Part shown: positions 1 to 6,000 of the stretch, in pieces | How the letters are laid out: each line of letters starts with the position of its first letter | Position numbering within the stretch: position 1 is the first letter of the stretch | From: a virus | Lineage: Duplodnaviria; Heunggongvirae; Uroviricota; Caudoviricetes | Strand: one strand, 5' to 3' | IMG/VR virus record: IMGVR_UViG_2724679237_000005 | Coordinates: 1-64,000 of that record | Length of the DNA stretch: 64,000 nt | Program-made: the position numbers

Positions 1-3000
1 AAGCAGGTCTTTAAATAAGCTCCCAGACCGATTACATCACCAGTAACTTCGCTTTGGCTCGACCTAAAGTGGTTAACCCAAGAGTTCGGCGGTGATAGCG
101 ATTGTCACTGCGTTGGCGCGTATGCCCTTTCTCCACCAGCCCCTTTTTTATCAGAGCGCGAATTGAGAACTGGATACTTTGCTTGGTTGTCTTGTACGGC
201 AAAACTTCAAGCAATTCGTCCAGATCAAGTAGATGACCTCGCTCATAACCGAGATTGAGCGTTTTGATGATGTCCTTTTGTTTATCGGTTAACGTCATGG
301 CAAATCCTTATGCCGGTAAAGCAATTTCTAACGGTTTATCCAAAGGTTGTTTGTCGAATGCCAGCAGTGGCAGCGTGTCAGGCAGTCGACGACCAAAGTC
401 AGGGTTTCGGTACACACCATACAACGGAGACGTAAAGCTCAGGTTGTGAATGTCCTTGAGCAGCTTCACAATGCTGGCCTCGTCCACCAGACTGTCGGCA
501 ATGTCTTGAATTGTCGTGCCACGATTCCTCCCAGCTTTTGCCAGGGAACTGTTCTTGTGGTAGTCCGCCACCAGATCTCGCAGTGCACGGCGACGACGGG
601 ACTCGCTCATTGCGAACAACTCTTTGACGATCGCCTCGTTATCACCCGGGTCGGAACGGAAATGGCGCTGGAACACACGCAGTGCACTTTCATAGCTCTT
701 CGGTCGCTCAGGGCGGATGAACTTGAACCCTGCTTTCATGGCGAAGGGATTGTATTTGCTCATCGATGACTGGATCTCAATGATTGGCCGGTCATGCATC
801 CTGCTAACCAGGTTAATCATTCGATAAGAGACGCCTACGCCACGGTACTGGGTATCCACAACTGATCGACTGATCACCGCGAAGTTGTTATTCACGTACC
901 GACCCCAGTACTGGTTAGCCACGGTGGTATTAGTGGTTGGTTTCAACTTAGGAAACATGCGGTGGCGAGGTGCCAGCAGTAGTTTCGGGTAAGCCATAAC
1001 CACGACGCCCACCAGACGGTCATCAAGTTCGCAGCGATAGTAAGTTGGCGCGAAAGGTTTGCCGTCTGTTTTGTAGTGAAGCGACTTAAGAGCGTGCCAG
1101 TCCTCTACAGTTCCCCTTGTGACAGTCATTCGCTCCAGAAAGTCCAGATGACGCGGAAACTCTTCAGGGCGGTAGCGTTTAATGATGATGTCCGTCATAA
1201 ATGAACCTCATCATGACTACCATTGTGATATTCCACCTTCACGCGTTCTTTGTAGTGCTTGGTGATCTGCATATCCGGGCGCAGCGCGTTCTTCAGGTCT
1301 TCGTGAGTCGTCGCCACCATTACCGTCGCACCAACCTTTCGAGCGGCACGCTGGAGGTTAGATGCCACAACCTGAGCGGTTACACGGTCTAGAACAGCAC
1401 CGAACTCGTCAGCAGCCCACACTTTAGCGCCTGACTCAATCAGTTTGGCAATCTTGAGACGATATTTCTGACCGTCTGACATTTCAGAAGGCTTGCGAAC
1501 AAACAGATATGCATCGTTCAGACCAGCCATAGATAACAACCCAAGCGCATCGCTGGTCGTTTTGCCCAACTGATCGATGACGTTAACCTCATTATCGAAG
1601 GTAAAATCATCGATGGAGGCTACAGACAGCCCTTCATCCTTCATCTGTCGTTGCAACTCGCGCAGCACAACGGATTTGCCGGAACCGGATTGGCCGGTGA
1701 TGTACACCACATCGCCCTGCTTCACTTCCAGCACCAGATTGTCGTAAAGCGTCCACTCTTTTTCGTCCAGGCCAAGCCCGAACGACTCAGCGATTTCCAA
1801 CGTGCGCGTGGTTTTATTTACGCGTGTCTGAAACGATACGTTGATGATGTATTTGCTCATGCAGCCATCTCCCCGGAAGAGATCTTCTCCGCATATGCCA
1901 CAAATGCGTCTACCCCGCTTTCTCCCGTCATTTCTTCCATATGGGCAAGCAAATCACCAACAACAATGGCAGAGCCAGCAGGGAGCGTTTTAAAGCCCAA
2001 TACGTCGACAACACGTACTTCTTCCGCTGCAACTTCACGACTGATCTCGGTGTGTTCATCCTTCTGTCGTTTAGTTTCTTCGCCAAGATCGATAACTAGC
2101 GAGTCGGTGTCCATTTCTTCTGTCATACTGCCAACGAGAACATTCAACTCACGCTCTTCAAAGCCGAAAACCTCGATATCGTCCAGAACAAGCGACTCAA
2201 GCTCTTTCTGTAGCTTAATTGCATCGTAATCAATGCTGGCAAGTCGGTTATCTTCAAGGCGCTTCGCACGAACCTCGTCATCACTGAGATCATCGCGAAC
2301 AATAACCGGTACGCGCTCAAGTCCAGCAAAAATTGCAGCCTCACGGCGGCCATGACCAGTAATAATTACGTCGTTCTTATCGACCGTAATTGGCTGGTCA
2401 AATCCGCGCTTTTTAATGGCTGCGGCCAGATCTCTGATCTGCTGTTCATCATGCTTTTTGGCATTCATCTCATAGGGAATAAGATCTGCCGGGTCGCGAT
2501 ATACGATTTCAAACTTTTTGGTCATTACATACGCTCCTTGTAGTAGTCGACCAGCCACACCAGAGCCTCACCAGCGTTCTCCATTTCATTACCGGTGTTA
2601 ATAGCCTGCTCTTTGATGATGTTTTTTATGGTTTCTGCAACACGATCTGACGCATCGAAGGTTACTTTGAAGCGCATGGTCTGATGTTCCGCACCGACAC
2701 GCTCGGTTTTCTCTCGTTTGTCGGTATCGACAGGCTCATCACTACCACGAGACAACGCCTCCAGTGCTTCAAGGTCGATTGCCGCCTCTTTTGCTAAAAC
2801 CATCGAGATTTCGTCGTCATACGGGGCGATTTCAGACAGTTGATAGTCAAGTTCTGACTGAATTTCTTCAATGAAGCGTTGCAATGCGATTTGGTCGTCT
2901 TCACCGTATCGCTCGTTGTCCACCAGTGACATCTGTTTTGCCACGACATCGCTAATTTTGCCCACAGAAAGCACTGGAACCGTTGAAATTCCTTGCTCAA

Positions 3001-6000
3001 TAGCGGCACGCCAGCGATGTTCGCCGCCGAGGATTTCAAAAAATCCATCTTCAAGTTCACGAGCCAAAATTGGCTTAAAAAAGCCCAATTTTTCGATAGA
3101 ACCTTTCAGTTTTTCAAAATTCTGCGCACCAACCGAATTGGTGTTCCAGGTATTCGGGCGAAGGTTGGCAACATCAACCTGCAAAATCGTGATTTTTACA
3201 TCCATTTTATTGCTACAATACACTAAGTAATCACTTACTTATTATAATAGCCAAATAACATACAAAAGGCACTAAGGAAAGAGGTTTATGACTGTTCGGA
3301 TTGTATCTAACGCAGTAAATGCGCTTATTTCTGGCGCAGATGACAAGGTAAAGCAACTGGTGCAGCAAATGTTGAGCTACGAAGTCGAGACTGGCGACTG
3401 GAAGGGCACAAGCACGATGTTCAACTGGAGTAAAAACTCGTTCCCTGCTGGCTTTGCCAAGCCTGTAGCGGCGAACTTGAACAAGTCGGGCATCAAATGT
3501 GTTCATATCCGCAAAGACAAAGCCCCGGCGCTTGGAAAGCCAAATCCGGCGGTTAACCCATTCCCATACAATCCTGATTATGCATATCAGGATCAGGCTG
3601 TGGAAACACTAGTTCGCGAGGGAATGATGATTGCCCAGATCGCTACTGGTGGTGGGAAATCTAACGTTGCCTGCAAAGCAGCTGCACGTATCGGTCGAAT
3701 GACATTATTTTTAACAACCCGCTCTGTTCTGATGTTTCAAATGGCCGAAAACTTCCAGAGGTCCATCGACTACCGCGCCGAAAATGGCGAACCGTGGTTA
3801 AAAGACCAAAAGGTTGGAGTCATTGGCTCGGGTGAGTTCCAGGTATCACGACATATCAACGTCGCTACAGTTCAAACTCTTGCAAGTTTCCTCGAAGAAC
3901 CACCACGCGATGCAACACCAGATAAGAAAAGCTACCACCTCAAACGTCGGGAGTTGGTGAAACGCTTCCTTTCAAGTGTCTCTCTTCTTATTCTGGAAGA
4001 GGCGCATGAGTCTTCAGGCTCAAATTTCTATGACATCGCCAGATTATGTGTGAACGCAGACTATCGTCTGGCGCTTACAGCCACGCCGTTCATGAAGGAT
4101 TCGACGGAAGCCAACATGCGCCTGATGGCGGTGGCCGGGCGAATTGAAATTAAAGTCACAGAAAAGTACCTGATTGATCGAGGCATTCTGGCAAAGCCGT
4201 ACTTCCTTTATCATAAAGTTGCCTACAAGCCAGACGAGGCCAGAATCAAGGCCGAACTTGCCAACAAACACCTCAATTTTAGAGTTGGTATGAGCACCGC
4301 CTACCAAAAGGCTTATCAGTTGGGGATCGTGTATAATTTGGGACGTAACGAGGCCATAGTGCGCGAGGCATTGCTTTATAAGCAACATTCACTCAACTGC
4401 ATGACTCTGGTTCGTCTTAAACGCCACGGGCAAATCCTGATGGAGATGATGAAGGAGTCAGGTCTTAGAGTTGATTTCATCTATGGGGAATCTAACCAGA
4501 CGACAAGGCAAGCAAAGCTGAACAGTTTAGCGTCTGGCGAAATAGATGTTTTAATAGGCTCGACTATTCTGGATGTCGGTGTTGATGTGCCAAGTGTGGG
4601 CGCGGTCATTCTTGCTGGTGGTGGGAAAGCAGAAGTTGAAATGAGACAGCGTGTCGGTCGTGGCTTACGAGCCAAGAAGAATCAGGCAAACGTGTGTTTT
4701 ATCACTGATTTCATTGACATTAGCAACAAATACCTGTTGTCTCACTCTTATGAGCGAAAACACATCATCGACACCACACCTGGCTTTGCAGAAGGTGTAT
4801 TGCCTATTGATGGAGCATTCGATTTTGGAGTTCTGAAACGAGATTAGTTATGAGCGAAAAGAAAACAACTTATTGCCAAGTGGCATTGTCTGATAAGGCC
4901 AATGAAAAACTTGGAAAATTTCAAATAAAACTCAAAGAGAAAAAAATCAAGATGTCTAAGGCTGAAGTTATCAATGCCATTCTGGAGACGATGACTATGG
5001 CTGAATTTGACAAAGTCACATCTGCCGTTGGGGTTTCCGCTAAGACGCGTGAGAAAATCATGCGCATCTATGAGAACTCCAATATGACAAAAAAAGATCT
5101 AGAGGAAATACTGAGCAGGTTGCCGTAACATTTCATATTTACCCCCTATCTACTAATTCTATGATGTGCTCACTTGTTAGAAAGGAGCACATCATGAGTT
5201 GGTTAAAAGAATTATCATTTGTTGACACCACTGGCGCTAAGAAAAATCATTCTTTCTGGAAAGTCAGCGATCCTTCTGATTTTCTTGTTGGTGCTAATGC
5301 TGCTTTTGAATTGCTTAACTTTTATCAACGTTATCCTGAAATGAAACACAGTCCACTCCTGTACAGAATAACAAACGATATGAATAGGTCTGGTTTATTA
5401 TCAAGTGAGTCAGCGAAAGGCTTTTTTAGCAAAATTACGCCACACATATCATTCGATTCAGCAAACGAAATTGATTATCTACCCACGAAACCTCAAGAAC
5501 AATTATCTGTACCACCTGAGAAAAAAGAAAGACGAATTGCCAGCATTGAAAATATATCGAAAGAGCTTCGCACAACAACGTTGAGGCTGCTGAACTTTCT
5601 TACGCTACTTAATTGGATAGATGATCAAACATTGATTCCATCAACCGATGCGTTGGATAACAGAGTCCTTAGGCTGAACAAAAAATCGCAATTTGGTTTT
5701 GTGTTCACCAAAAAAGGTGAAGATTTAATCAAAAGAAAATATAGATTATTGAATGATTAATAGTCTACATGCAGGTGTATGAGAGCACCTGCATGTGACA
5801 TTCATCACATTTTTTGAAGTACACACCTCCGGCTGAAAAAATTTCTTGATTGGCTGAACGATATTTGTAGGCTTTTCAATTGATAACTAATGTCGGATAC
5901 TGTAGATGAGTATTTCTATAAACAAAATAATTAACTCTTTACGACATAAAATATCACATGGAAAAGATGCTCTTTTTAAAGACAAATATTATCTATTCAA

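Follow-up and report, generated by a model that had tools for sequence, protein, structure and literature searches.

A conserved ParB–ABC ATPase–GNAT gene module beside the terminase genes of SSU5-type phage-plasmids as a candidate nucleic-acid modification system

Gene content and layout of the operon

We analysed a stretch of 64,000 nt of the IMG/VR virus record IMGVR_UViG_2724679237_000005 (hereafter the window), at the start of which five minus-strand genes (positions 32–3223) encode two ParB-like proteins (ParB1 and ParB2), a small ABC-type ATPase, a GNAT-like protein and a protein of 88 amino acids (aa). The first 5.2 kb of the window, which served as query for the wider database match, matched 783 plasmid records, 707 of which cover at least 80% of the query. 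These plasmids are mostly non-mobilisable and derive from Klebsiella, Escherichia, Enterobacter, Yersinia, and Salmonella. The best plasmid matches have 98–99% identity and a size of about 110 kb, among them Escherichia coli LF82 plasmid NC_011917 (pLF82). As the same DNA has also been deposited as phage genomes, namely those of Escherichia phage Cyrano (98.3%) and Salmonella phage SSU5 (83%), the element in the window is an SSU5-type phage-plasmid.

The five genes named in the original prediction, which was made from the sequence without database searches, are all present and free of internal stops, and each of their products has a strong match to a PHROG (phrog_723, 930, 293, 886, and 900; E 1e-45 to 1e-164). 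Start codons are those chosen by RefSeq (Table 1) and the gene junctions were checked directly on the sequence. Translational coupling by overlaps had been proposed for the whole operon; it holds for three of the four junctions (1, 4, and 4 nt, the ABC ATPase and GNAT genes overlapping by 4 nt), but not for the last gene, which follows after a gap of 9 nt.

Beyond the edge of the window, pLF82 continues after the 88-aa gene with a gap of 196 nt (contig L001 8834–9029) and then with late genes, all on one strand, for a 210-aa protein, the large terminase (TerL), the portal, a scaffold-like DUF6651 protein, and the major capsid protein. The 210-aa protein matches phrog_867 and is annotated in Cyrano as the small terminase (TerS, putative). 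The gap contains an AT-rich palindrome whose arms are 16 nt long, two copies of a 17-nt direct repeat (CAGTAAACAAGTTGTTT and CAGAAAACAAGTTGGTT), and, directly before the TerS ribosome-binding site, a terminator-like hairpin (GAGCGC..GCGCTC) with a T-run. The suspicion that the operon continues past the window edge was thus right in that packaging and head genes follow, but they do so only behind this gap and its hairpin, because of which the five genes look like a transcription unit of their own directly upstream of the packaging and head genes. The linear records of SSU5 and Cyrano both begin and end inside the gap, which could be a late-promoter or antitermination region or the neighbourhood of a cos or pac site.

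At the other end of the operon, ParB1 is separated from a divergently transcribed helicase gene by a short control region that holds a palindrome, a possible operator (Table 1); a simple scan of this region did not find a sigma-70 consensus. Palindromes of the type (AT)AAGTA-N0-6-TACTT(AT) occur five times in the window versus 0.42 times expected, the other four at 11361–11372, 12000–12010, 34856–34867, and 49228–49239. Four of the five, i.e. the one between ParB1 and the helicase gene and three of the others, are located in or beside intergenic or promoter-proximal DNA, and a related AT-rich palindrome is found in the gap before TerS (L001 8961–8993). The AAGTA/TACTT palindromes may be operators of one phage regulator.

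Table 1. Positions of the module genes and adjoining features in the window
Feature	Positions	Strand	Remarks
Start of the 196-nt gap before the putative small terminase gene	1–31	−	Most of the gap lies beyond the window
Small helix–turn–helix (HTH)-like protein, 88 aa	32–298	−	phrog_900; weak winged-helix matches
GNAT-like acyltransferase (predicted)	308–1198	−	GNAT fold at about residues 1–165, plus family-specific C-terminal domain
ABC ATPase	1195–1860	−	Soluble, of the type of transporter nucleotide-binding domains (NBDs)
ParB2	1857–2525	−	End at 2525, not at 2558 as first predicted
ParB1	2525–3205	−	RefSeq ATG; GTG at 3223 in the list of open reading frames (ORFs) less likely
Divergent control region ParB1/helicase	3206–3287		Holds palindrome AAGTAATCACTTACTT at 3225–3240
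UvsW-like superfamily 2 (SF2) helicase	3288–4847	+	Pfam ResIII, DEAD, Helicase_C

Domain composition and fusions of the module proteins

The ATPase matches Pfam ABC_tran (2e-12), and its sequence matches in the PDB are transporter NBDs. Its motifs are complete, with Walker A (GQSGSGKS), signature (SDGQ), Walker B and catalytic glutamate (DEF), and H-loop (TTH), so that an ABC-type ATPase in place of a ParA-type ATPase, as originally described, is indeed encoded. The GNAT-like protein has a GNAT fold with 36 invariant residues, the cofactor loop among them, and carries a family-specific extra domain of about 130 residues at its C-terminus. The best structural matches of the GNAT domain are protein N-terminal, lysine, or small-amine acetyltransferases. 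Three proteins, namely the GNAT-like one, the 88-aa one, and the putative TerS, had no useful match in searches against the sequences of solved structures.

A profile of the GNAT family searched against 1.84 billion representative proteins yielded 887 matches, many of which have a length of 450–500 aa, the GNAT-like region spanning roughly residues 200–480 and Pfam ABC_tran lying in the N-terminal half. In an alignment of 35 of these fused proteins the ABC and GNAT motifs are the same as in the two window proteins, and the ABC motif columns (Walker A, LSDGQ, DE, H) are invariant. The window ABC ATPase matches the ABC part of the fused proteins at 1e-28 to 1e-60, and together the window ABC and GNAT proteins match both halves of the fused ORFs. 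By sequence, the two genes are thus a split form of a widespread fused ABC-GNAT protein of the COG2401 type. The label used by JGI and by the authors of the Cyrano record, 'ABC-type ATPase fused to a predicted acetyltransferase domain', is the name of COG2401/MK0520.

Four proteins of 666–699 aa (P0227, P0193, P0225, and P0220) combine even more of the module in a single chain, which consists, in this order, of an N-terminal ParB-like domain (motifs NPN, DGEQR, and RQVLNK), a CxxC zinc (Zn) ribbon, the ABC domain, and the GNAT domain. A hidden Markov model (HMM) of the ParB1 family detects the ParB-like part in three of the four chains and the fourth was recognised by eye; Pfam at E≤0.01 gives no ParB domain in any of them, so that the family HMM together with the motifs is the basis of the assignment. 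The existence of such chains, together with the ABC-GNAT fusions and the adjacent, translationally coupled genes in the window, shows at the level of gene and domain organisation that the ParB-like protein, the ABC ATPase, and the predicted GNAT acyltransferase form one functional unit. ABC-GNAT comes with additional parts in four further proteins (P0178, P0206, P0155, and P0166), namely a DNA polymerase of family B, TFIIB repeats, or, inside the ABC domain, an intein with LAGLIDADG. These combinations, which are either genuine fusions or gene calls that ran on into the next gene, suggest an archaeal or archaeal-virus setting.

Both ParB proteins match Pfam ParB_N (3e-13 for ParB1, 1.5e-8 for ParB2) and are paralogous, as proposed, with 33% identity over the N-domain (E 5e-10). 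Orthologues of ParB1 and ParB2 remain separate across the lineage; the duplication is therefore old and both copies have been retained. ParB1 was modelled from a profile-search alignment, a plain homologue search having returned near-identical Klebsiella sequences only. The predicted structure (predicted local distance difference test score, pLDDT, of 83) comprises a confidently predicted ParB/Srx CTPase-type N-domain (about residues 1–120), two helices, a disordered acidic linker (155–172), and a C-terminal strand-helix-helix part (175–225) with ribbon–helix–helix (RHH)-like topology; the model has none of the classical HTH DNA-binding domain of ParB. It is closer to the DNA-binding CTPase ParBs PadC, pNOB8 ParB, and KorB than to small-molecule kinases of the same fold. 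ParB2 has a GHGRR motif, an acidic linker, and a conserved small C-terminal domain. It matches phrog_930 at 1e-112; behind this family and one more ParB PHROG, its next-best matches take in the ParB N-domain that phage DNA methyltransferases carry (phrog_498, 1.7e-31; PADLOC MTase_II, 2.9e-17). The HMM of the ParB2 family matches the ParB of Streptococcus prophage 315.4 at 8e-37, which identifies ParB2 by sequence as the ParB type found with ABC-GNAT in other phages.

The 88-aa protein is basic and belongs to a family of unknown function (phrog_900, 2e-45). Its designation as an HTH protein stands in so far as the gene is real and its matches are of the winged-helix type (Sta1, Lrs14, and LexA_DNA_bind), but these matches are weak (E 0.0025–0.07), and the protein is probably a winged-helix DNA-binding protein. 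Regulation of the downstream late and packaging genes or a role as targeting factor are possibilities.

Conservation and genomic neighbourhoods of the module

A first scan of viral contigs with the GNAT alignment returned close SSU5-type relatives only, and the scan was re-seeded with distant GNAT-like homologues that are about 44–50% identical to the window protein. Co-conservation of the five genes proved to be strong. The order of the divergent helicase gene followed by ParB1, ParB2, ABC, GNAT, (HTH), TerS, TerL, and portal was found in all 55 loci with enough flank, with one to three small genes between ABC and GNAT in some relatives, and a homologue of the 88-aa protein is encoded directly 3' of the GNAT gene in 77 of 79 loci, as detected by an iterated HMM. 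Isolated phages of 106–122 kb that carry the cluster include Pseudomonas phages nickie, hairong, phiK7B1, and ZY21, Rhizobium phage RHEph10 and others, and phages of Stenotrophomonas and Xanthomonas; for one nickie-type phage, temperate behaviour was not observed by its authors. The cluster is also found in an Ectothiorhodospira genome, in marine contigs, and in a prophage-like region of a 3.27-Mb contig (L002), which has flagellar genes on its flanks, unmapped boundaries, and an apparently chromosomal location. Two marine relatives encode a dATP/dGTP diphosphohydrolase (PF04447) within a few kb of the module (L004 1573–1998, L005 189–614). The PF04447 family is linked with 2-aminoadenine (Z-base) genomes, and some marine relatives may thus carry another DNA modification.

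The helicase had been considered a possible part of the module. It is syntenic in 55 of 55 loci of the lineage, yet was not detected beside the distant ABC-GNAT versions that were searched with it, and no helicase is annotated next to the modules of the Gordonia, Streptococcus, and Leptospira phages described below. Tenacibaculum phage pT24 and Nonlabens phage P12024S have helicase genes, which may or may not be related to that of the window, 1–2 kb downstream of the module. The helicase is a conserved divergent neighbour outside the portable module.

Fused ABC-GNAT genes occur in genomes of Bathyarchaeia, Nitrososphaeria, and Planctomycetota, and three Planctomycetota loci (L101, L110, and L116) have the order ABC-GNAT, ParB-like, TerL. 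In 80 metagenomic viral contigs with the fused gene, TerL was scored by an iterated profile; it directly abuts the fused gene upstream in 44 of 79 loci and was confirmed as Pfam Terminase_6N in one. A further contig set contained at least 11 loci with ParB (with or without Zn ribbon), ABC, GNAT, and TerL in series on one strand. The ABC-GNAT or ParB-ABC gene is located at, or cut by, the contig end in about one quarter to one third of the IMG/VR contigs L148–L227 and L308–L343, which would fit a physical genome terminus or a provirus-prediction boundary.

The module also has terminase genes as neighbours in three isolated phages or prophages from other hosts. Gordonia phage Axumite encodes a ParB-like protein (gp1), ABC+GNAT (gp2), a Formyl_trans_N protein (gp3), and the terminase (gp4); gp3 (L344 1805–2452) is identified by Pfam, which does not support the record's label tRNA methyltransferase. 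In Streptococcus prophage 315.4 the order is ParB (ParB2 type), ABC, a short GNAT, an ASCH protein (L345 5981–6358; Pfam E 1e-5), DUF5681, TerL, and portal, so that the ASCH gene sits between the ParB-ABC-GNAT and terminase genes. Proteins of the ASCH type act as N4-acylcytosine amidohydrolases and are also predicted to read modified bases. A Cyrano label 'ASCH' also exists for the window ORF at 44392–45036; the ORF has no Pfam match at E≤0.01 and was not used as evidence. Leptospira phage LE4 has ParB-like and ABC+GNAT genes, then three small genes, TerL, and portal.

Elsewhere the terminase is not nearby. In the BcepMu-like Burkholderia phage phiE255, ABC+GNAT follows the tail genes and is itself followed by a formyltransferase gene (gp30, L349 5044–5658; Pfam Formyl_trans_N), and a Porphyromonas phage (formyltransferase gene at L348 5023–5496) has the same arrangement according to the depositor's annotation only. 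The place of ABC-GNAT in phiE255 matches that of mom in Mu, which lies after the tail genes. The module of P12024S is located between primase and helicase genes, and that of pT24 among hypothetical genes, with the helicase gene about 1.7 kb downstream. Hence the large terminase is the usual neighbour of the module but not a constant one, and the presence of the module in such different contexts indicates that it is mobile between unrelated phages. Further proteins related to group transfer or to modified bases recur in its company; in three unrelated phage lineages (two by Pfam, one by annotation) the gene immediately behind ABC-GNAT encodes a formyltransferase.

Other genes of the element are of separate interest. 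Cyrano has a ParA gene with a small downstream partner gene at 29.3–30.3 kb, apart from the module, and the element carries tRNA genes and a methionyl-tRNA synthetase (MetRS) gene. The latter is a full-length metG on the minus strand, divergent to an ORF at 16670–17770, the pair spanning 14479–17770 of the window. By its sequence and gene order this ORF, labelled 'MinD' in Cyrano, looks like a host-derived Mrp/ApbC, and for this reason it was dropped as a ParA partner. The two genes resemble a pair on the E. coli chromosome and presumably are captured host DNA. A phage-borne aminoacyl-tRNA synthetase is noteworthy as the acyl donor of Mom, the GNAT-fold enzyme of phage Mu, is a charged tRNA; a link is conjectural. 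An ORF for 1211 aa on the minus strand (18258–21893) resembles, by eye, intimin/invasin-type adhesins with many repeated Ig-like segments and on this reading would be cargo rather than a phage core gene. A second gene for a small 'ABC transporter ATP-binding protein' (CYRAN_75; Cyrano 74621–75265, about 33084–33728 of the window) sits in a nucleotide-metabolism cluster beside DHFR, ThyX, and polynucleotide kinase.

Predicted function, alternatives, and related systems

Among the functions that had been suggested for the operon, a DNA modification module agrees best with the data. The ABC-GNAT and ParB-ABC-GNAT fusions, a published in silico prediction that ABC-GNAT systems acylate a DNA base, and the precedent of ParB-dependent DNA modification in phages argue for a phage nucleic-acid modification module that is predicted to act on replicated phage DNA shortly before or during packaging. 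We favour this function tentatively, at somewhat short of an even chance. The intact ABC motifs and the conserved GNAT cofactor loop support the competence of the putative enzyme. ParB1 and ParB2, perhaps paired in a heterodimer, would act on DNA as a nucleotide-dependent (probably CTP-dependent) clamp or activator, with site or sequence recognition provided by the RHH-like tail of ParB1 and possibly by the 88-aa winged-helix protein. By dimerising in an ATP-driven manner, the ABC domains would place a pair of GNAT domains on the DNA and perhaps also aid in exposing the target base; the GNAT domain would move an acyl group from acyl-CoA or aminoacyl-tRNA to the exocyclic amine of a base. The modified genome would then be packaged by the terminase encoded downstream and be protected from, or distinguished by, host nucleases in the next infection. 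A more specific version has the module as an ATP- and ParB-clamp-dependent writer of an undescribed N-acyl base mark (e.g. N4-acyl-cytosine or N6-acyl-adenine), which in some phages is elaborated by the formyltransferase and read or erased by the ASCH protein and is installed at the hand-over to the terminase; this version is possible, though we think it is more probably wrong than right.

Several observations speak against a modification function. The match to the GNAT fold is generic, with Mom no closer to the GNAT protein than dozens of protein and small-molecule acetyltransferases, and hence the structure does not reveal the substrate. In both ParBs the CTP-binding motifs are only partly canonical (GEHR and GHGRR versus GERR). 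The frequent place beside the large terminase would suit a packaging role equally, and the ASCH and formyltransferase neighbours also fit an RNA or aminoacyl-tRNA target. Modified DNA in SSU5, Cyrano, or the nickie-type and RHEph10-type phages did not come up in our literature searches, nor did experimental work on these module genes or on the ABC-GNAT prediction. Fused homologues of Bathyarchaeia also occur in contexts without a clear viral look; no viral neighbours were found at the two Bathyarchaeia/Gemmataceae loci inspected, so that the family is not provably restricted to viruses.

The module is not a partition, transport, or catalogued defence system. A plasmid partition or incompatibility function, with the ABC ATPase in the place of ParA, might be read from the combination of two ParB_N proteins with an ATPase on a plasmid-borne element and from the public annotations as ParB/RepB/Spo0J partition proteins. 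The operon was, however, already suspected not to be a standard partition cassette, and this view is strengthened by the absence of an adjacent ParA gene, the separate ParA cassette of Cyrano, and the occurrence of the cluster in an apparently chromosomal prophage and in nickie-type and other phages with no known plasmid state. As ParB1 also has no classical HTH domain and no repeated parS-like array was found in or beside the operon, partition is effectively excluded; in other phages, moreover, the partner genes encode terminases and transferases. Transport was rejected on the grounds that the five proteins have no membrane component (maximum 19-residue hydropathy of 0.25–1.46, i.e. no transmembrane segment), and the neighbours are helicase and terminase genes. 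The suggestion of a defence or anti-defence system found no support in PADLOC 2.0, where matches were limited to the N-terminal ParB part of ParB-methyltransferase fusions and to unspecific similarity with P-loop proteins and helicases.

Three further explanations carry more weight. As a packaging accessory, the ParB-like and ABC-GNAT proteins would help the terminase to recognise, cut, or load the genome end. The ParB-like fold has reported nuclease and DNA-clamp activities, and HK97-like phages, by analogy, encode HNH proteins next to cos and the terminase genes. The position of the module, which in this lineage is always just upstream of putative TerS, TerL, and portal and which recurs beside TerL in the 44 of 79 metagenomic viral loci, in the at least 11 further loci, in the three Planctomycetota loci, and in the Gordonia, Streptococcus, and Leptospira phages, is what this explanation would lead one to expect; the same is true of the record ends of SSU5 and Cyrano in the module–TerS gap and of the many contigs that end at ABC-GNAT, as expected near a genome terminus. 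It is weakened by the contexts far from the terminase in phiE255, the Porphyromonas phage, P12024S, and pT24, by a strictly conserved acyltransferase active-site region without an obvious job in DNA cutting or translocation, and by the formyltransferase partner in three phages and the ASCH partner in one; furthermore, with phrog_867 a candidate small terminase is already present in the lineage. We consider a packaging role, the strongest of the alternatives, unlikely, but worth keeping in mind. Protein acetylation for host takeover or counter-defence, with the ParBs as nucleotide-dependent regulators, and modification of RNA or aminoacyl-tRNA both keep some weight because the GNAT fold match is generic. 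The former, in which ABC-GNAT would acetylate a protein of the host or of the phage (e.g. a subunit of RNA polymerase, a nuclease, or an immune effector), fits the best structural matches of the GNAT domain, the wide distribution of the module in phages that face diverse defences, and the precedent of Rac of phiKMV-like phages, which acetylates host RNA polymerase (PMC7824862). It is harder to reconcile with the fusion to, or constant pairing with, a DNA-clamp-type ParB with Zn ribbon or RHH-like tail, which points to a nucleic-acid substrate, with the location among late and packaging genes rather than early takeover genes, and with the lack of a match to any anti-defence or defence family in PADLOC, and we regard it as rather improbable. 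In the latter, the module would perform a TmcA/NAT10-like ATP-dependent acetylation or would acetylate charged tRNA. The Formyl_trans_N neighbours recall Met-tRNA formyltransferase, the element has its tRNA and MetRS genes, and the ASCH protein inside the 315.4 module belongs to a family that hydrolyses N4-acetylcytidine (ac4C) and is proposed to act as tRNA ac4C eraser. TmcA is a GNAT precedent for action on a nucleic-acid amine (PMC13219725), TmcA/NAT10 making ac4C in tRNA. Yet the ParB1 model is nearer to DNA-binding CTPase ParBs than to small-molecule kinases, RHH-like and winged-helix partners are typical DNA binders, and the terminase linkage or mom-like position favours DNA; an RNA target thus appears improbable to us.

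If the N-acyl writer existed, it would be the second GNAT-based DNA hypermodification pathway after Mom and would be encoded on common phage-plasmids of E. coli, Klebsiella, Salmonella, and Yersinia, in many other phages, and on metagenomic viral contigs resembling Bathyarchaeia sequences. DNA hypermodifications decide phage escape from restriction and CRISPR, supply enzymes for biotechnology, and can confound sequencing. A packaging role, if true, would add a new class of terminase accessory. The module is present on hundreds of clinical phage-plasmids and in phages that can be cultivated and are genetically tractable, namely SSU5 with Salmonella as host and Cyrano/pLF82 and PhiR41_1 with E. 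coli K-12, which makes the acylation prediction, now more than 10 years old, directly testable. Labels such as 'chromosome partitioning protein ParB' and 'ABC transporter' are misleading for these genes and inflate the apparent plasmid-maintenance content of phage-plasmids.

The closest known relatives are the ABC-GNAT proteins of the COG2401/'MK0520' type, for which neither the COG nor its name was found in our literature searches. They share the core domains with the window proteins in the same order (ABC N-terminal, GNAT C-terminal) and give high-scoring profile matches. The window module differs in that it is split into two overlapping genes, in the additional C-terminal domain of its GNAT half, and in being accompanied by the small winged-helix-like protein and by two paralogous ParBs, of which one ends in an RHH-like tail. 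The prediction that such systems acylate a DNA base reportedly originates from Iyer, Zhang, Burroughs, and Aravind (NAR 2013). Phage pT24 was recovered in our analysis with a fused ABC-GNAT protein and is the example phage given for an ABC-ATPase plus GNAT system predicted in silico (2013) to acylate a DNA base (PMC7824862; Viruses 2021;13:63).

Two GNAT enzymes that act on nucleic acids are more remote. With Mom the window protein shares the GNAT fold, and the phiE255 ABC-GNAT has the position after the tail genes that mom has in Mu; in structural comparison Mom was no closer to the window protein than other GNATs, and membership in the Mom family is not indicated. Mom of Mu is a DNA adenine N6-carbamoylmethylase that late in infection acylates the exocyclic amine of the base and uses Gly-tRNA (PMC13219725). 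According to the same source, TmcA is an ATP-dependent GNAT precedent that acylates an aromatic amine of a nucleic acid (RNA). TmcA/NAT10 resemble the module in coupling an NTPase to a GNAT domain that acts on a nucleic-acid base, but their ATPase is helicase-like rather than ABC, their substrate is tRNA or rRNA, and homology was found in the GNAT fold only.

Short phage ParBs, which consist of a nucleotide-binding N-domain and a C-terminal domain without a DNA-binding domain, are required activators of post-replicative T-dioxygenases (5mYOX), in clusters that often co-occur with terminases (PMC13229309; PNAS 2026). ParB1 is likewise short, with an N-domain and a C-terminal domain and without a classical HTH, whereas its partner is ABC-GNAT instead of an Fe(II)/2-oxoglutarate dioxygenase and two ParBs are present instead of one; no TET/JBP-type Fe(II)/2-oxoglutarate dioxygenase domain was detected in the five proteins or their neighbours. 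By analogy, the module may work like the 5mYOX-ParB family without being a member of it. Type I ParABS systems share the CTPase-type ParB_N fold of both window ParBs; they differ in having a co-encoded ParA, an HTH domain that ParB1 lacks, and centromere repeats, and the window module also occurs in non-plasmid phages.

The ABC-GNAT core is thus of a kind that has already been predicted, and the SSU5-type arrangement is a variant of it in which the genes are split, two specialised ParBs and a winged-helix-like gene are present, the GNAT has an extra domain, and the place in front of the terminase genes does not vary. Our analysis adds that the ParBs belong to the unit, that two specialised paralogues have been kept, that the unit travels between unrelated phages, and that it usually stands beside the terminase. 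The ParB fusions, the conservation of twin ParBs, and the terminase, formyltransferase, and ASCH neighbourhoods appear to be new to the literature, the 2013 NAR paper aside.

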